The translations under genes and the position numbers were made by a program. This document shows, in pieces, positions 24,695 to 63,131 of a stretch of DNA of 64,000 bases; the stretch's first letter is position 1; every line of letters starts with the position of its first letter. The stretch is from Dehalococcoidia bacterium (GTDB lineage: Bacteria > Chloroflexota > Dehalococcoidia > Lucifugimonadales > UBA3495), in the NCBI GenBank assembly GCA_965203975.1, contig CBDBDT010000001.1, positions 648,029-712,028 of the forward strand. Reading direction: 5' to 3'. The notes beneath the pieces are model-generated. The model worked only from the letters and a program-made list of their open reading frames with translations. It did no database searches and had not been told where the DNA came from.

Positions 24695-26461
24695 ATGGAA
24701 GCTAACATCTTGACCTTACAAACTTTGTTTGGCTCTGATGTGTCATATCGCATACCCCAATTCCAACGCCCCTATGCTTGGAAAAAGGATGATCAGTGGA
24801 AGCCTCTTTGGGAAGACGTGCACAACCTCACTGGAACCATCCTGTCCCGGCCAGACCGGAAAGTGCCACCGCATTTTATGGGTGCAATAGTTTTGCAGAG
24901 TCAAGAGAGTGGTACGGGAGAAGTAGTGAAGCGGATTGTGGTAGATGGCCAACAACGTCTTACCACGCTCCAACTCCTCATTCGGGCAGCTCAGGACGCT
25001 TTCCAAAGCCTGAATGATACTGAAAGGGCTAACAGATTGTCTGAATTAACCCTTAATACCGAAGACCATTGGGGAGGCGACTCAGATAACCAGACCAAAA
25101 TCCGCCAGTCTAACCTCAACGACCAACGGGCCTTTCAAGAGGCGATTCGAGGCTCTAGTGATGGACATGGGTCGCTGCGGGCCATCGGTGAAGCGTTCGA
25201 GTATTTTAAGGGAGTAGTAATGGAATGGCTGAACGAGGAACCAGCTATCAGGGTCGGCCGTTCTAATGCCTTGGAAGAAGCCCTCACTAAGTATCTGCAA
25301 ATCGCAGCCATAGATTTGGATGATGGAGAAAAACCGCACTTTATCTTCGCCGTCCTAAACACCCGTGCTGAACCTTTGAAAGAGTCCGACCACATCAAAA
25401 ATACTGTAATGTATGAAGCCGACGTCATTGATGACGCCCATAAAGCCGGCGAATTGTGGGGGATGTTCGACAACAATGATTGGTGGCGCCAAGAAACTAA
25501 AGAAGGACGACTGAACCGCATCCATCTGGACAGATTTCTCAATTATTGGATTGTCGTCCGGACGCAAGAGGACATTACATCGGATCGCGTGTCGGCTCGA
25601 TTCAGCAGTTATGTTGAATCTGCCCGTTCATCAATCGAGGACATTACGGCAGATATCCGCAAGGCTGGTTTGATATACCAGGATATGGAGGAAGCTCGAT
25701 ACCCGGGCATAGAAACTTTCCTGCGTCGAATGAAGACCATGGAGCTTGGCGCGGTTATGCCTCCACTTCTGTGGCTCTACACGAACGAAGTTCCAGAGGA
25801 AGAACGGAACAGGAGCATCAAGGCGCTAGAGAGTTTTCTTGTCAGGCGCATGCTCTGCGGACTTGGTTCTCAAGGACTCAACAGGCTATTCATCGAACTT
25901 GTCGGCAGGCTGGAGGCAAGGGGAGCCGACCGCGTTGATGAGAGTCTGGTCGGCTTTCTCAACAGGCAAACCGTCGAAAATCGCATTTGGCCCAAAGATG
26001 GGCTTCTAGCAGAAAACCTTATTCAAAAACCTCTACGGGGTAGCACAAGCCGACAAAGGATGGTTTTGGAAGCCATCGAGATCGCTATGAGAAGCGACAA
26101 GACCAATGTCTTCGAGCAATTTCGGAACCTCACCATCGAACACTTAATGCCCCAATCATGGGAACGTAACTGGCCATTGCCACAAGATGTCTCCGATAGA
26201 AACGAGGCTTCGGAAGTCAGGAACCGCGCCATCAAGGAAATCGGGAATTTGACGCTGGTTACTGATAAATTGAATCCGAGCCTTTCCAACGATCCGTGGG
26301 GAAAGAAAAAGGAGACTCTTGCCCAACATACAGCGCTTCGCTTGAATTGGGAATTGCTTAACCCTGATCCTGAGGTGTGGGACGAGGAGGCTATATATGC
26401 GCGTAGCGAGGAGTTACACGGAAGAATTCTAAAGATTTGGCCTCATGCCGACCTACTCTAG
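24695..26461 (+). CDS. DUF262/DUF1524 protein, GmrSD-like (putative modification-dependent type IV restriction nuclease)
   Basis: N-terminal QFQRPYAW and VVDGQQRLTTL (DUF262/ParB-like). C-terminal TIEHLMPQS ... GNLTLVTDKLNPSLSN (DUF1524 His-Me finger). The gene is visibly AT-richer than its flanks. Confidence 0.85.
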   Translation: MEANILTLQTLFGSDVSYRIPQFQRPYAWKKDDQWKPLWEDVHNLTGTILSRPDRKVPPHFMGAIVLQSQESGTGEVVKRIVVDGQQRLTTLQLLIRAAQDAFQSLNDTERANRLSELTLNTEDHWGGDSDNQTKIRQSNLNDQRAFQEAIRGSSDGHGSLRAIGEAFEYFKGVVMEWLNEEPAIRVGRSNALEEALTKYLQIAAIDLDDGEKPHFIFAVLNTRAEPLKESDHIKNTVMYEADVIDDAHKAGELWGMFDNNDWWRQETKEGRLNRIHLDRFLNYWIVVRTQEDITSDRVSARFSSYVESARSSIEDITADIRKAGLIYQDMEEARYPGIETFLRRMKTMELGAVMPPLLWLYTNEVPEEERNRSIKALESFLVRRMLCGLGSQGLNRLFIELVGRLEARGADRVDESLVGFLNRQTVENRIWPKDGLLAENLIQKPLRGSTSRQRMVLEAIEIAMRSDKTNVFEQFRNLTIEHLMPQSWERNWPLPQDVSDRNEASEVRNRAIKEIGNLTLVTDKLNPSLSNDPWGKKKETLAQHTALRLNWELLNPDPEVWDEEAIYARSEELHGRILKIWPHADLL

Positions 26462-57190: not shown

Positions 57191-57262
57191 CCCCGGAACC
57201 TTGGTCGGTCTGGCGCCGGTGCCAGCAAGCCATCGGTGCGGGCTGAATGGGAGGTGCAAGTC

Positions 57263-58027
57263 ATGTCAGGTCATTCGAAATGGTCCACCATCAAACGTCA
57301 GAAGGGCGCTAACGACGCCAAGCGGGGTGCGCTTTTCACCAAGCTTGCCCGCGATATCGTCCTGGCCGTCCGTGACGGCGGGGGCAGCGACCCGGAAATG
57401 AACTTCCGGCTCCGCCTTGCGGTGGACAAGGCCAAGTCCAATAACATGCCCCTGGACAGCATTACCCGCGCCATCCGCCGGGCCTCTGGCCAGGGCGAGG
57501 GGGTGGAGGAGTTTTCGGAGGTCACCTACGAGGGATACGGTCCCGGCGGCGGCGCGATTCTGCTCCAGGCCTTGACCACCAACCGCAACCGCACTGCCTC
57601 CGAGGTGCGGTCCGCCTTCAACCGGGGCGGCGGCAACCTTGGTGAAGCCGGCTGTGTGTCCTGGAACTTCGAGACCAAGGGCGTCATAACCCTGGAGGTC
57701 GACGACCCGGACCGGGCCGACGAGCTTAGCCTGGTCGCCATCGACGCCGAGTCCGACGACGTCAAGTACGAGGACGGACTCCTGGAAATCTACACCGCTC
57801 CGGAAAACCTCCAGTCGGTGCAGAGGGCTTTGGAGGCGGAATCCGCCGAGTTGGCGTCCTGCGACATCTCCCTCGTTCCCAAGGCCACCATCGCCCTGGA
57901 CGAGAAGGCCTCGGAACAGACCCTCCGCCTGCTGGACAGCCTGGAGGAACTGGCAGACGTCCAGAAGGCCTACACCAACGCCGACTTCCCGCCGGAGGTG
58001 TTGGAACAGTACCAGGCGGCAGCCTAG
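57263..58027 (+). CDS. YebC/PmpR family DNA-binding transcriptional regulator
   Basis: MSGHSKWSTIKRQKGANDAKRGALFTKLARDI is a canonical N-terminus. Confidence 0.95.
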   Translation: MSGHSKWSTIKRQKGANDAKRGALFTKLARDIVLAVRDGGGSDPEMNFRLRLAVDKAKSNNMPLDSITRAIRRASGQGEGVEEFSEVTYEGYGPGGGAILLQALTTNRNRTASEVRSAFNRGGGNLGEAGCVSWNFETKGVITLEVDDPDRADELSLVAIDAESDDVKYEDGLLEIYTAPENLQSVQRALEAESAELASCDISLVPKATIALDEKASEQTLRLLDSLEELADVQKAYTNADFPPEVLEQYQAAA

Positions 58028-58549
58028 ATGCGCGTCCTAGCCATCGATCCCGGCACCGTTGCCATGGGATACGGGGTGGTCGACTCGGGCCCTCCGACCG
58101 ATGCCGACGACTACGGTGTCCTGCGGCTGCCCCGGTCGATGCCCCTGGAAGAGCGCCTGTACCAGCTGCACACCCACATCCTGAACATGATCAACATCTT
58201 CCACCCCGACGCCGTCGCCGTGGAAGAGCCTTTCGTGGGCCGGGGGGAACGCCAGTTTGTCGGGCCCGCCATCGCCGTCGGGCAGGCCCAGGCCCTGGTT
58301 TTCATCGGAGCGGCCAGCCAGAACGTCCCGGTGTTCCGTTACAGTCCCGCCCAGATCAAGCTGGCCGTGACCGACTATGGTGGAGCGACCAAGGAACAAA
58401 TGCAGCAGACCGCTGCGTCCACCCTCGGCCTCCATGAAGTGCCCTCCTCCGACGCCGCCGACGCCCTCTGCGTTGGGTTGTGCCACCTCATCAGCCAGCA
58501 GGCCGTGACGGCCCTTGACCGGATAATTCCCCCCGGCCAGGAGCGTTGA
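58028..58549 (+). CDS. ruvC: crossover junction endodeoxyribonuclease RuvC
   Basis: MRVLAIDPGTVAMGYGV start (catalytic D). 173 aa. Confidence 0.9.
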   Translation: MRVLAIDPGTVAMGYGVVDSGPPTDADDYGVLRLPRSMPLEERLYQLHTHILNMINIFHPDAVAVEEPFVGRGERQFVGPAIAVGQAQALVFIGAASQNVPVFRYSPAQIKLAVTDYGGATKEQMQQTAASTLGLHEVPSSDAADALCVGLCHLISQQAVTALDRIIPPGQER

Positions 58550-58553
58550 ACGC

Positions 58554-59135
58554 TTGATAACCGGGGTGAGCGGCGTCCTGCAGGGCGTTGGCCCGGATAG
58601 CGTCCATATCCAGGTGGGCGGGGTGACCCTGCAGGTGTTCGTGCCGTCCTCGGTGCCGCCGTCCCTGGGCGCCCAGGGCAGCGCGGTGCAGCTGTTCACC
58701 CACCTGCGGATCCGGGAAGACCAGCCCGTCCTCTACGGGTTCGCCACCGAGGCTGACCGCGATGCCTTCCTGCTCCTGATGACCGTTTCCGGAATCGGCC
58801 CCCGCCACTCCCTGGGACTGCTGGGAACCTTGGGAGTCTCCGGAGTCCAGCAGGCCATCGAGGCCGGCGACGTGGCCGCCCTCAGCGTTGCTCCCGGCAT
58901 CGGCCGGCGCACCGCCGGAAGGCTGGTTCTGGAACTCAAGGGCATGGTCGTTGCCACCGAGACCGGCGCTTCTCCTGTCGCCGACGGTTCCGCCGGCGAG
59001 GTGGTCGAAGCCCTCATGGCCCTCGGCTACTCCGCCACCGAGGCGAGGCGGTCCCTTAACGGCCTGGACGCTCCTGCCGACGCTACGGTCGAGGAACGCA
59101 TCCGGCTTGCGTTGATGCAGTTGGCGGGGGGGTAG
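58554..59135 (+). CDS. ruvA: Holliday junction DNA helicase subunit RuvA
   Basis: TTG start. MITGVSGVL...HLRIREDQPVLYGF...LLMTVSGIGPR (HhH) pattern. Confidence 0.9.
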   Translation: MITGVSGVLQGVGPDSVHIQVGGVTLQVFVPSSVPPSLGAQGSAVQLFTHLRIREDQPVLYGFATEADRDAFLLLMTVSGIGPRHSLGLLGTLGVSGVQQAIEAGDVAALSVAPGIGRRTAGRLVLELKGMVVATETGASPVADGSAGEVVEALMALGYSATEARRSLNGLDAPADATVEERIRLALMQLAGG

Positions 59136-59137
59136 GT

Positions 59138-59689
59138 ATGGCCCATTCCACATGCGGGCAAATGTTCAATGCTGGAAAGACTCTGTTGGAGCAAAGCGGG
59201 TTGGTTGTCTGGACTGCCGACGGGGATTTTGGTTCCAAGTACCCGGGGTTGAACGATTGCCAGTTTGAGAAATGCGCCGCAAAAAGATTTGGTGGCGAGT
59301 TTGGACGGTATATTTCTTGGGTAATGTTCTCGGTTGGGGCGGAAAACTTGGCGAAGGCCGCGTGCGTTTGCAACGGGATAGTGTCGAAGTCCCCGCCAAA
59401 TCTTGACTACGGTACTCTTGGAGATTATTGGAAAGGTAGGCCAAAGGAAACACCTTATCTGAAACAGCTTTGCGAGAAGCGATCTGTTTTGTATACCGAT
59501 TCAGCGAATTTGCTCAATGGTTATCGATACCTTACTCAGAAGATCAGGAACAGGGATACTCATACCTACATCCCGAATGTTCGGAGAAACGATTTCCCCA
59601 AAGTAGAATTAACCTTCGTTCCAGCGTTCAACATCCTGGTCGAGACAATGAAAAAGAATGGGCATTTCGGGGGTTCAAACCATGCCTGA
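59138..59689 (+). CDS. AT-rich 183-aa protein with HEPN-like R-N-x-x-x-H motif, unknown family
   Basis: Hand-counted lines inside give 42-55% GC, against ~73% in the adjacent ruvA line. RNRDTH at nt 59546..59563. Helix-like [11 protein letters not shown] upstream. 2-nt gap to ruvA and 8-nt overlap with uvrB. Confidence 0.6.
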
Positions 59690-61709
59690 ATTCCAACTGG
59701 TGTCCGATTTCCAAATGACCGGCGACCAGCCCTTGGCCGTCCAGAAGTTGGTGGGCGGGGTGCGGGAGGGGATGGAGCACCAAACGCTGATGGGTGTCAC
59801 CGGAAGCGGCAAAACCTTCACCATGGCCAACATCATCCAGGAGGTTCAGCGCCCTACCCTGGTGCTGGCCCACAACAAGACCCTGGCCGCCCAGCTCGCT
59901 TCCGAGTTCAAGGAGTTCTTCCCCAACAACGCCGTCGAGTACTTTGTCTCCTACTACGACTACTACCAGCCGGAAGCCTACGTCCCCCAGTCCGACACCT
60001 ACGTCGAAAAGGACGCCAGTGTCAACGAGGAACTGGACAAGCTCCGTCTGGCTGCCACCACGTCCCTGCTGACACGCCGTGATGTGCTGATCGTGGCCTC
60101 CGTTTCCTGCATCTACGGCCTGGGCGACCCGTCTGATTACTTCAACCTGGTTGCCAAGGTGGAAGTCGGCGAGATTCGCGACCGCAGCCGCCTGCTCCGC
60201 CAGCTCATCGACATGCAGTACGAGCGCAACGACTATGACCTGGCGCGGGGACGGTTCCGCGTCCGCGGTGACACCCTGGAGATCGTGCCCGCCTACGAGG
60301 AACTGGCCGTCCGGATCCAGTTCTTCGGCGACGAGGTGGAGAAAATCGTCGAAATCGACCCGCTGACCGGGGAGTTGCTGGCCCAGCGGCAGGAGACCGC
60401 CATCTACCCGGCCAAGCACTTTGTCACCACCCAGGAACGCTTGGGCCTGGCCGTCAAGGACATCGAGGTCGAACTGGAAGAGCGCCTGCGCGACCTGCGC
60501 GCCCAGGACAAGATCCTGGAGGCCGCTCGCCTGGAGTCCCGCACCAACTACGATCTGGAAATGCTGCGGGAAGCCGGGTTCTGCCACGGCATCGAGAACT
60601 ATTCCTGCCACCTCGCCCGCCGCCACCAGCACCGGGACGGCAAGTTCGCCGTGACCTGCGGCTCCACCCCCTGGACCCTGCTGGACTATTTCCCTGAAGA
60701 CTTCCTCATGTTCATCGACGAGTCCCACATGACCCTGCCCCAGGTCCGCGGCATGTACCACGGCGACGTATCCCGCAAAAACACCCTCGTTGACTACGGT
60801 TTCCGGCTACCCTCCGCTGTGGACAACCGCCCGCTGAACTTCGGAGAGTTCGAACAGCGGATCAACCAGGTGGTCTTCGTTTCCGCCACGCCCGGCCCCT
60901 ACGAGATGGAGCACAGCGCGGCGGTCGTGGAGCAGGTCATCCGGCCCACCGGGCTGCTGGACCCCACCATCGAGGTCAAGTCCACCGCCGGCCAGATCGA
61001 CGACCTCCTCCAGAACATCAAGCAGCGGGTGGACGTGGGCCAGCGTTGTCTCGTGACCACCCTGACCAAGCGTATGTCCGAGGAGCTGGCCGACTACCTG
61101 TCGGAGATGGGAATCCGCAACCACTACCTCCATTCCGACATCGAAACCCTCAACCGGATCGAAATCCTCCGCGACCTGCGCCTCGGCGTCTACGATGTAA
61201 TCGTGGGCATCAACCTGCTGCGGGAGGGCCTGGATCTCCCTGAGGTGAGCTTGGTGGCCATCCTGGACGCCGACAAGGAGGGTTATCTCCGGTCCACGAC
61301 TTCCCTGATCCAGACCATCGGGCGCGCGGCCCGCCACTCCGATGGCCACGTCATCATGTACGCCGACCGTATAACTGACTCCATGAAGCTTGCCCTGGAC
61401 GAGACGGCCCGGCGGCGGGAAATCCAGCACGCCTTCAACCAGCGTAACGGGATCGAACCCCAGAGCATCCAAAAGGCCGTCCATGACATAACCGACAGCA
61501 TCAAAATGGTGGCCGAGCAGAAAGCCGGCTACCAGGTGGCCCGTCAGGAGATGTCCCGCGATGACATGTTCCGGGTGGTCAAGGACCTGGACTTCCAGAT
61601 GAAGGAAGCCGCCCGCAACCTCGAGTTCGAGAAGGCCGCGGCCCTCCGGGATGAAATGTTCGAGCTTCGCCGCCTGCTCGCCGTCGAGGAAAAGACCCTC
61701 AGCGTGTAA
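59682..61709 (+). CDS. uvrB: excinuclease ABC subunit B
   Basis: [20 protein letters not shown]...[13 protein letters not shown] and C-terminal UVR domain [12 protein letters not shown]. Confidence 0.97.
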
Positions 61710-61744: not shown

Positions 61745-61999
61745 TCACCGGTACGCTTCCCGCCGGTGCAACACTCTGAGTATCGTGACTACCCCGCGCG
61801 GGTAGTCGAAGGTTAGCAGTACCCGCCAGTCGCCTACTCTAAGGCGCCACCTTTGTCCAAGTCCTTGCAACTTGATAACGTCTCCCCGCTCCGCCTCGGC
61901 AAACTCCAAAAGTGCGATGCGAATTCTGTCGGCCGTAGCTCGCTCTAACCTGCGGAAATCCCTCGAGGCAGCGGCTTCCCATTCGATCTCCCAGGTCAC
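61745..61999 (-). CDS. RelE/ParE family type II toxin
   Basis: 84 aa with ...RLRVGDWRVLLTF...VTILRVLHRREAY pattern. ATGA overlap with the upstream antitoxin gene. Confidence 0.85.
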   Translation of the reverse strand: MTWEIEWEAAASRDFRRLERATADRIRIALLEFAEAERGDVIKLQGLGQRWRLRVGDWRVLLTFDYPRGVVTILRVLHRREAYR

Positions 62000-62250
62000 A
62001 GGCCGAGTTCTCGCATCAATTCCTCGTGGGGAATGGCTGGTTCCCCTCGTGCGATGGACTCCATGGCCTCCTCAAGGGCCTCTATTTCGTCCTCTTCTGG
62101 CTCCTCCTCTGGTGCGTTGAGGAGCGCCCGCAGCAGCGGATCGTGTTCCGCTAGACGTTCCAGCAAGGCTTGGTGGACTGCGGCCCACTCACATTCCGGA
62201 AGTCGGTCCACCAGAGCGTGGAGTGTTGTTTTATCAATTTGTCCAATCAT
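61996..62250 (-). CDS. cognate antitoxin (unclassified)
   Basis: Small acidic protein overlapping the toxin start. The start is ATG 62250, or GTG 62280 overlapping the upstream stop. Confidence 0.6.
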   Translation of the reverse strand: MIGQIDKTTLHALVDRLPECEWAAVHQALLERLAEHDPLLRALLNAPEEEPEEDEIEALEEAMESIARGEPAIPHEELMRELGL

Positions 62251-62276
62251 GGCCCTTTCCTGTTTCCTGGGTGTGG

Positions 62277-63131
62277 TCACTCTGCCCCGCCTTTAACCAC
62301 CCGGTGCAGCCGTTCCAGCACCGCCGCGTTCTCGTCCAGGCTGAAGTTGTCCACGTAGTATTTGCTGTCGCCGCTGGTCCCGTCCACAGCTCCCCGGTCA
62401 ACCAGGTGGGTAATCAGCCGCCGGTCCTCCTCGATTGACGGAAGCAGGTTCCTCCCGGACAGCCGGGACAGCGCGGCCACCAACCCGTACCCGCCCCAGT
62501 TGGAGACGCTGGCCAGGATCAGCCGGTCCACCCTCGTCACCGCCGGGTCGGGAGGCAAGGTCGCCACCGTGGGAATAACCTCGGCCAGGTTGCCCATCCC
62601 TATCTCGTTCCCGCCGTCCCCGATGCCCACCGACGGGATGCCAGCCTCGAAGAAGTAGTCCAGCCGGGCGGTGTGCTCGGTGATATCCCGGTACCGCATG
62701 TTCAGGTATGCGTCCGAACCGGTCCGCCCGCACCGCTCGATGGAAATAACCAGCCCCGGCCGAATTCGCTCCAGTACCGCCGCCGTCTCGCGCTTGCTGG
62801 TCGCCACGTCGGCAATGGGAAACTCGATAACCTCGGCCCGGTCTTCCAGCCATTCCCTCATCGACGGAGCGGAGTGGCGGTCGGTTACATAAGTCACCTG
62901 CCGGCCCAGCGCCTGCAGAGCGTTCCCGATGGCGACGGCTCCCGGCGGCCCGTCCGTCTCGTGCTTTCCTGCCGACAGGATGTAGAACCCGGTAGCGATG
63001 ATAGCCGGACCCGGGTGGTCGAGGACGTACTGCGCTGCCAGCGTGCAGAAATCCTCCGCAACGTGCCCCCGCAGGTGGGAAACCCCCCGCTGGTCCTGGT
63101 CCAGGATGATGTCTTCGATGGTCTCGGCCAT
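62277..63131 (-). CDS. DUF4392 (D-glutamate-cyclase-like) domain protein
   Basis: PAIIATGFYILSAGKHETDGPPGAVAIG and SVGIGDGGNEIGMGN pattern. Confidence 0.8.
   Translation of the reverse strand: MAETIEDIILDQDQRGVSHLRGHVAEDFCTLAAQYVLDHPGPAIIATGFYILSAGKHETDGPPGAVAIGNALQALGRQVTYVTDRHSAPSMREWLEDRAEVIEFPIADVATSKRETAAVLERIRPGLVISIERCGRTGSDAYLNMRYRDITEHTARLDYFFEAGIPSVGIGDGGNEIGMGNLAEVIPTVATLPPDPAVTRVDRLILASVSNWGGYGLVAALSRLSGRNLLPSIEEDRRLITHLVDRGAVDGTSGDSKYYVDNFSLDENAAVLERLHRVVKGGAE

Follow-up and report, generated by a model that had tools for sequence, protein, structure and literature searches.

The locus described here is the junction between the DNA-repair genes ruvA and uvrB in a 64,000-nt stretch of contig CBDBDT010000001.1, which was analysed as a whole and is referred to below as the window. 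At this junction lies a previously unannotated open reading frame (ORF), designated P0001, which is almost certainly a real gene of foreign origin that has replaced a toxin–antitoxin-like cassette, and which is predicted to encode a ribonuclease (RNase) of the HEPN superfamily. The genome to which the window belongs is labelled G000, and the other genomes of the same genus are labelled G001-G007. The genes at the locus are the following:

57236..58027, + strand: yebC (TACO1/YebC family; PF01709, E = 2.4e-49)
58028..58549, + strand: ruvC (PF02075, E = 3.6e-27)
58554..59135, + strand: ruvA (RuvA_N, HHH_5 and RuvA_C in Pfam)
59138..59689, + strand: the HEPN-like ORF P0001, encoding 183 residues, previously unannotated
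59682..61709, + strand: uvrB (Pfam UvrB), with a mosaic 5' end (~150 nt) by comparison with the nearest sister genomes

The ATG of P0001 is located 2 nt past the ruvA stop codon (TAG at 59133-59135), and the ATG of uvrB at 59682 creates an overlap of 8 nt between P0001 and uvrB (ATGCCTGA). The coordinates given for P0001 in the initial annotation of this DNA were all correct. The same annotation had noted that the operon here lacks ruvB and had placed the ORF where ruvB would be expected. The latter did not hold, as a genome search located a full RuvB_N match (E = 3e-76) on the same contig, ~386 kb from the window (G000:C1:1093911-1094387, - strand), and the gene order ruvC-ruvA-(gap)-uvrB proved to be common to 8/8 genomes of the genus. 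P0001 is therefore not in an expected ruvB position, but in a slot that varies across the whole genus.

In all seven sister genomes, the gap between ruvA and uvrB measures 304-555 bp with a G+C content (GC) of 0.53-0.57, and contains a 62-codon ORF (MATTDIKQ...) whose product is weakly similar, below threshold, to RelB/ParD antitoxins (E = 0.011-0.047). In G001 and G005 a gene for a ParE toxin of 95-99 residues comes next (PF05016, E = 4e-14 and 2e-17), while G004 carries in the ParE position an 81-codon ORF whose product resembles ParE at the N-terminus and then diverges. In G002, G003, G006 and G007 the small antitoxin-like ORF stands alone in the gap. No homolog of P0001 was present at any position in the genomes of the seven relatives (0/7). 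Accordingly, the horizontal acquisition that had been proposed on the basis of a low GC content is supported by synteny independently of GC: the gene is missing from every sister genome while ruvC-ruvA-gap-uvrB is kept in all of them. By parsimony, the ParDE-like cassette would be ancestral for the genus and would have been replaced in the genome to which the window belongs. Among the sister genomes the cassette itself is decaying, with a full-length ParE retained in G001 and G005, and with an altered C-terminus of the 62-residue protein in G003.

Alignment of the junctions with those of the sister genomes delimited the replacement at the level of single bases. On the left side, homology stops directly after the ruvA stop codon ('...GGGTAGG|T ATG'). 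On the right side, it resumes at 'CGGGGGTTCAAACCATG', and 'CGGGGGTTCAAACC ATG CCTGA' is identical to the sequence in G001. These break points define a foreign segment that coincides almost exactly with the ORF:

59137..59667, + strand: foreign insert of 531 bp, GC 0.475, replacing the ParDE-like cassette of the sister genomes (from junction alignments and composition)
59668..59689, + strand: host-derived uvrB leader, with a Shine-Dalgarno-like GGGGG, and uvrB start (identical to G001)

As a consequence of this architecture, codons G178-A183 and the stop codon of P0001 are host sequence contributed by the uvrB leader and represent a non-native tail. The incoming gene has lost its own stop codon, which in relatives comes a few codons past '...NGHF'. 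In agreement with this, residues 180-183 form the only segment of the AlphaFold model of the protein with a predicted local distance difference test score (pLDDT) below 50. No inverted or direct repeats beyond chance-sized matches flank the insert, and neither a tRNA gene nor an integrase or recombinase gene is present near it. The adjoining uvrB gene carries a possible footprint of the event: its identity to the nearest sisters, G007 and G001, is 87% over nt 1-150 and 93-94% over nt 151-942, and the identity between G007 and G001 is 95% in either part. In addition, residues E3, Q11, M31 and E32 near the N-terminus of UvrB are of the type found in the G002/G003 lineage. The most likely explanation for this mosaic is that the cassette came in by homologous recombination between conserved flanking sequences, with a crossover ~150 nt into uvrB, which would have exchanged the RelB/ParD-ParE-like cassette for P0001.

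The base composition of P0001 was in line with a foreign origin. In 200-nt windows over the ORF the GC was 0.43-0.54, as compared to ~0.65-0.70 in the flanks, and the GC of the entire ruvA-uvrB gap was 0.48 versus 0.69 for ruvA and 0.63 for uvrB. The 531 bp at 59137-59667 constitute the lowest-GC span of this length in the 64 kb (0.475 versus a mean of 0.634 for the window; z = -4.1 over all 531-bp spans of the window), and GC at third codon positions (GC3) was 0.55 for P0001 versus 0.83-0.87 for yebC, ruvC, ruvA and uvrB. The previously noted low-GC anomaly is thus both real and strong. Genes of the P0001 family, however, were lower in GC than their flanks at 22/23 loci, with a mean difference of ~0.08. 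Since a low GC is typical of the whole family, GC alone cannot date the insertion at ruvA-uvrB.

The slot between ruvA and uvrB is occupied by a family member in one other genome, the Dehalococcoidia metagenome-assembled genome (MAG) S16_99 (locus L087), of which UvrB is 80% and the RuvA C-terminus 48% identical to the counterparts in G000. The family gene at this locus is 44% identical to P0001, has a GC of 0.43 against 0.59-0.61 in its flanks, and its end is separated by 2 nt from the ATG of uvrB. A family tree put both slot copies into one well-supported clade (99/98), though within a polytomy, and their monophyly was not rejected in an approximately unbiased (AU) test (p = 0.48). They may represent either an old slot allele passed on by recombination or two separate arrivals.

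A further pair of small genes is located directly downstream of uvrB and convergent to it, at 61745-62280 of the window (- strand). It encodes a ParE/RelE toxin of 83 residues (PF05016, E = 1e-8), with a weakly RelB-like ORF of 93 codons upstream. Taken together with the slot cassette, this places cassettes of the toxin–antitoxin type on both sides of uvrB in the genus.

P0001 belongs to a sizeable protein family. A search with the single sequence retrieved 183 relatives, an exhaustive phmmer search gave 231 representatives at 50% identity, and a profile built from 100 diverse members detected at least 502 protein clusters. None of the family members contains a Pfam domain, and the few names that accompany them in the source records (Candidatus Angelobacter, a Diapherotrites archaeon, Nitrospira) read 'hypothetical protein'. 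Conservation was assessed in alignment A2, comprising 100 diverse or distant members, in A1, which covers the Dehalococcoidia subfamily, and in A3, which together with A2 represents the wider family. Two conserved motifs emerged, both of which can be placed on an AlphaFold2 (AF2) model:

59342..59356, + strand: E69-N-L-A-K73, an Ex3K motif in predicted helix-2 (residues 53-78; alignment A2 and AF2 model)
59546..59569, + strand: R137-N-R-D-T-H142-T-Y144, an Rx4HxY motif with which predicted helix-3 ends and the loop to helix-4 begins (family alignment and AF2 model)

Five residues, W61, E69, R137, H142 and R149, were invariant in 100/100 sequences of A2. K73 was conserved in 97/100, N138 in 98/100 and Y144 in 91/100, and R139 and D140 were found to lie within the range of 91-98%. 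In a second set of 62 sequences, the Arg and His of the motif were present in 62/62 and the Tyr in 59/62, and RNRDxH was retained in ~100 of 108 distant representatives. The RNRDTH sequence singled out in the initial annotation is indeed encoded at 59546..59563 (R137..H142), and the RNxxxH pattern that it exemplifies holds for the family as a whole.

The HEPN superfamily (Pfam clan CL0291) is characterised by Rx4-6H with a polar residue (N, D or H) directly after the Arg (Anantharaman et al. 2013, PMC3710099). A second hallmark is an acidic residue conserved in helix-2, in many cases as part of Ex3[KR] (PMC3710099). Both features are found in P0001, the former as R137-N138-R-D-T-H142 and the latter as E69-N-L-A-K73. 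A segment of 14 residues that had been flagged as resembling the first HEPN helix pair could be specified as helix-2, which carries the Ex3K motif.

The AF2 model of P0001 (pLDDT 91.8; predicted template modelling score (pTM) 0.88) consists of helices 4-19, 53-78, 119-140 and 149-173, with an insert at 79-118. E69 and K73 are located within helix 53-78; R137-D140 finish helix 119-140, H142 is placed in the loop 141-148, and helix 149-173 follows. A second model was obtained for the Nitrospira member P0345, which is ~30% identical and was modelled from a separate alignment. This model (pLDDT 94.3) has the same order of elements, but its helix 139-162 runs through the motif, which the alignment places at 157-162. 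Judged by secondary-structure element in these two predicted models, both motifs appear to sit where the HEPN fold places them.

When the P0001 model was compared with known structures by Foldseek, the matches were 7bxo_D, the HepT chain of the MntA-HepT complex (probability 0.89, TMt 0.58), 2hsb (AF_0298; probability 0.84, TMt 0.59) and 5yep_C (SO_3166). For the P0345 model, 2hsb was again the top match (probability 0.75, TMt 0.52). With both models, HEPN structures were the only matches of appreciable probability. We also aligned the family with HepT and PF05168 alignments built from related genomes, using hhalign. In the best path, IRNRDAHxY was in register with the RNxxxHxY of HepT, and the final helix was aligned as well. 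This comparison served to establish the register of the motif and not as evidence for homology, because a control alignment of two recognised families of the superfamily, HepT (PF01934) and HEPN (PF05168), was equally non-significant (P = 0.078), which implies that hhalign has little power in this case. The earlier proposal that the arrangement matches that of HEPN RNases is thus upheld in that the motifs, the topology of the models and the best Foldseek matches agree, but it lacks a significant link to any HEPN family at the level of sequence, profile or structure. From the motifs and the models we consider a HEPN fold highly probable. Given such a fold and an intact motif, RNase activity can be predicted with good confidence, whereas the chances that the protein serves as a toxin or in defence are, in our view, evenly balanced. 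Our favoured reading is that P0001 represents a previously unnamed, solitary family within the HEPN superfamily and is probably an RNase toxin or defence gene; we hold this reading with somewhat more conviction than doubt.

On the favoured reading, the protein would be a small HEPN-fold, metal-independent endoribonuclease that is probably dimeric. Catalysis would use H142 as general base and R137/N138 for stabilising the transition state, with E69 and K73 completing the active site, while the invariant R149, plus R139 and D140, would probably aid in substrate binding. The gene would behave as an accessory, selfish toxin or as a defence-type RNase. Conceivably, its activity could be restrained by the family-specific N-terminal module, by modification of Y144 in trans, or by low expression as a result of atypical codon usage.

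The absence of a partner gene from the locus, as initially annotated, extends to the family. Clustering of the genes within +/-3 positions of the family gene revealed no recurring neighbour family in 22 independent Dehalococcoidia loci, and the same was true for four loci from Nitrospira and other phyla. No MNT gene was adjacent to the family gene in at least 26 loci; in the window the neighbours are ruvA and uvrB. In addition, none of the overlapping, alternative or antisense frames within the gene was consistently open or conserved. Two candidate partners, a PaREP1-family protein beside the second family copy in G000 and a NERD protein beside P0035, were discarded as single cases each.

Several findings weigh against the favoured reading. 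None of the Foldseek matches to HEPN structures reached a significant E-value (all >= 0.5). P0001, its paralog and distant members gave no matches in Pfam, NCBIfam, PADLOC or PHROGs, and P0001 had no match at E <= 10 among the models for known and candidate defence proteins of PADLOC-DB 2.0. When 100 members were compared with Pfam at E <= 10 the result was scattered noise, one member hitting PF08780 with E = 0.049, and the family profile had no match at E <= 10 among PDB sequences. The hhalign comparison with HepT was non-significant (P = 0.074; range for HepT and PF05168, P = 0.07-0.09). As regards function, a constitutively expressed HEPN RNase without an antitoxin should harm its host, which argues for a further control mechanism or for a non-toxic role. 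As regards the proposed mode of arrival, the mosaic at the 5' end of uvrB spans just 150 nt, and there is no donor among the sampled genomes.

Among the closest known systems is HepT (DUF86, PF01934; Shewanella oneidensis SO_3166, PDB 5yep and 7bxo), as indicated above by the register of RNxxxHxY and of the last helix and by the highest Foldseek probability, that of the HepT chain. Both proteins are small, and for both a metal-independent RNase activity is expected. In the type VII HepT/MntA system the toxin belongs to PF01934 or PF08780 and is neutralised by an adjacent MNT antitoxin (PF01909) with the signature GSX10DXD. Rx4HxY defines the class I HepT toxins, of which the Tyr is the site of AMPylation and is not needed for toxicity (PMC7641770). 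The P0001 family displays RX4HXY (Tyr in 91/100 and 59/62), but unlike HepT it has no match to PF01934, no significant match to PF08780 and no adjacent MNT gene at any locus. Proteins of the AF_0298-type HEPN-T (2hsb) and classical HEPN (PF05168) resemble it in that 2hsb was the top or near-top Foldseek match for both models. In AF_0298-like proteins the motif His is usually missing and another His is used in its place (PMC3710099). In contrast, the P0001 family keeps a canonical, invariant Rx4H, and it shows no match to them at the sequence level. With the solitary or abortive-infection (Abi) type of HEPN proteins (AbiV, AbiU2, AbiJ-associated, DUF4145 and others; Anantharaman et al. 2013), the family shares the lack of an MNT partner, mobility, an association with defence and a patchy distribution, but it matches none of their Pfam or PADLOC models and has neither a domain fusion nor a recurring operon partner. 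The type II systems ParDE and RelBE, finally, occupy the same niche, being small, lower-GC selfish cassettes between ruvA and uvrB that are co-oriented with the operon. Their proteins are nevertheless unrelated to P0001: ParE is a toxin of the alpha/beta type that comes with an antitoxin gene of its own, whereas P0001 is a single gene and has none.

We considered three other explanations. The protein could be a HEPN-fold RNase with a benign role in RNA processing or turnover, perhaps linked to DNA damage, in which case no antitoxin would be needed. This would account for the lack of a partner gene in at least 26 loci, and it would suit both the operon shared with DNA-repair genes in the window and in L087 and the many loci in which the gene stands amid housekeeping genes. 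However, a gene with such a role would not be expected to be as rare and patchy as this one (2/401 genomes of the class, 3/41 relatives), to be lower in GC than its flanks at 22/23 loci, to travel with resolvases and transposases or to land in a slot that otherwise holds a toxin–antitoxin cassette. Moreover, the copy in G009 has lost its catalytic His (RNRDVD), and no LexA-like box is present upstream of the operon. We consider a benign role unlikely. Alternatively, the protein could be no HEPN protein at all, but an unrelated helical bundle in which R-N-x3-H and E-x3-K serve in ligand or nucleic-acid binding or in another type of catalysis. Every database similarity is indeed non-significant, up-down helical bundles are common folds, and the extra N-terminal helix 4-19, hairpin 23-33 and helix 41-51 are absent from minimal HEPN domains. 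Yet two independent motifs fit in type, in order and in predicted structural position, and HEPN structures were the only high-probability matches for two members that are ~30% identical. As HepT and PF05168 are equally undetectable to one another, non-significance is to be expected within this superfamily. A fold other than HEPN thus seems distinctly improbable.

The third explanation invokes a system of type VII (HepT/MntA-like), and holds that P0001 is a toxin neutralised in trans, with Y144 being AMPylated by an unlinked MNT nucleotidyltransferase. Rx4HxY is the signature of class I HepT, its Tyr is the AMPylated residue (PMC7641770) and Y144 is conserved in 91-95% of the sequences. Furthermore, the genome contains six PF01909 (MNT) matches and no PF01934 (HepT) match. 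The six are, however, all located on another contig, contig 2 (MNT genes lie, for instance, near C2:411741 and C2:2174141), and the absence of an adjacent MNT gene was noted at every one of at least 26 loci. A mobile, solitary gene cannot count on a partner encoded by each new host. Since the Tyr of HepT is dispensable for toxicity (PMC7641770), the conservation of Y144 may be structural or catalytic. Neutralisation by an unlinked MNT protein is in our opinion very unlikely. The solitary HEPN RNase that we favour could be part of a wider arrangement, in which the ruvA-uvrB junction of SAR202/Dehalococcoidia would be a dedicated exchangeable slot for selfish toxin cassettes, ParDE in some genomes and a solitary HEPN gene in G000 and S16_99. 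The cassettes would be swapped ORF-exactly, by recombination via the conserved repair-gene flanks, would be expressed and coupled with uvrB, and the HEPN protein would be self-contained without an antitoxin gene, restrained by its N-terminal module or by modification of Y144. We regard this extended scheme as speculative and rather doubtful; if true, it would represent a new regulatory logic for HepT-like RNases.

Its distribution marks the family gene as accessory and mobile. The close subfamily occurs exclusively in MAGs of the Dehalococcoidia/Chloroflexi, where the gene is rare, being present in 3/41 relatives and 2/401 genomes at the class level, and across phyla its occurrence is patchy. 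G000 itself holds a second family copy at C2:2228002-2228487, encoding 162 residues with an intact RNRDAH. As this copy belongs to a different clade, it was acquired separately. The second copy (L018 1501-1989) is followed after 35 nt by a gene for a 127-residue PaREP1-family protein (L018 2024-2407; PF05942, E = 1.6e-6). In L014, too, two PaREP1 genes lie at a distance of ~4 kb from the family gene. PaREP1 itself is a family of the HEPN clan.

The closest homologs of P0001, P0002 and P0004, are encoded 80 bp downstream of a small serine recombinase gene (Resolvase + HTH_7) and co-oriented with it, among DDE transposases. This arrangement recurs in two different surroundings (L110-L113), and the small serine recombinase and the family gene may form a small mobile unit of recombinase and cargo. 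P0035 was found on several contigs of one sample, adjoining insertion sequence (IS) elements and the above-mentioned NERD protein gene. Other copies lie beside small genes of toxin–antitoxin appearance, namely a HicB-like gene, DUF433/DUF5615 genes, or a small ORF with an overlapping ORF of 149 codons. The family member and HicB-like antitoxin gene at L116 4001-4902 have a full-length Ni_insertion (LarC-like) gene on one side and two Ni_insertion fragments on the other, as though they had inserted into, or next to, a duplicated larC. The copy in G009 (L016/L098, contig CAXXFI010000001.1), in which the catalytic His is replaced (IRNRDVDNY), overlaps a downstream lipoprotein-like ORF and adjoins a transposase gene; judging from its sequence, it has probably been inactivated, a sign of decay. 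A tblastn search for a phage or plasmid origin yielded no matches in 50,697 phage and 72,556 plasmid records.

With respect to expression, a single promoter-like site was detected on the + strand before P0001:

57161..57190, + strand: sigma-70-like promoter TTGACC-18-TAAAAT with a TG extension, upstream of yebC (consensus match alone)

A consensus scan of the + strand revealed no terminator-like site before the end of uvrB. The read-through expression that had been suggested for P0001 is consistent with both findings. The tight packing of the genes, with a 2-nt spacer on one side and an 8-nt overlap on the other, makes it most likely that P0001 is co-transcribed with the repair genes, and the gene is probably transcribed together with yebC, ruvC, ruvA and uvrB without a promoter of its own. 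Since ribosomes that finish P0001 terminate in the start region of uvrB, translational coupling is plausible, and translation of uvrB may be coupled to that of P0001. SOS regulation was considered and dismissed, as no LexA-like GAAC-N4-GTTC box is present upstream of yebC.

In Cas13, Csm6, RNase L, many Abi systems and the most abundant type of toxin–antitoxin system, the effector is a HEPN RNase. New HEPN families turn up regularly, and one more would be no great surprise to a specialist. What P0001 would add is a widespread family from bacteria and archaea, with at least 502 clusters, that is named in no current library. The family keeps a HepT-type Rx4HxY site and is never accompanied by MNT or any other recurring partner, and one has to ask what keeps such an RNase from doing harm. 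The locus, moreover, offers a clean natural cassette replacement, in which a ParDE-like module was swapped for another toxin-type gene inside a DNA-repair operon, with base-level junctions, a putative recombination footprint and a second instance of the occupied slot in a distant relative. In practical terms the locus is of modest value, which consists of a candidate compact RNase and a new profile for the annotation of defence and toxin–antitoxin genes in uncultured marine Chloroflexota.

Within the Dehalococcoidia subfamily, four further residues, H3, C6, C78 and H176 (59144-59146, 59153-59155, 59369-59371 and 59663-59665), are at least 90% conserved, a feature of A1 that is not seen in A2 or A3. 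Judging by helix polarity, they may cluster at one end of the bundle, where they could possibly form a subfamily-specific metal or disulfide site. A Zn site as a feature of the whole family was rejected, because these residues are kept in the Dehalococcoidia subfamily alone.

The second-lowest GC patch of the window (GC ~0.48-0.50) is located at 24695-26461 (+ strand). It corresponds to one gene of 588 codons for a GmrSD-type type IV restriction protein (GmrSD_N, E = 1.5e-30; GmrSD_C, E = 1.3e-22), which is wedged between etfA and panC and which, like P0001, has the appearance of one-gene defence cargo amid housekeeping genes.

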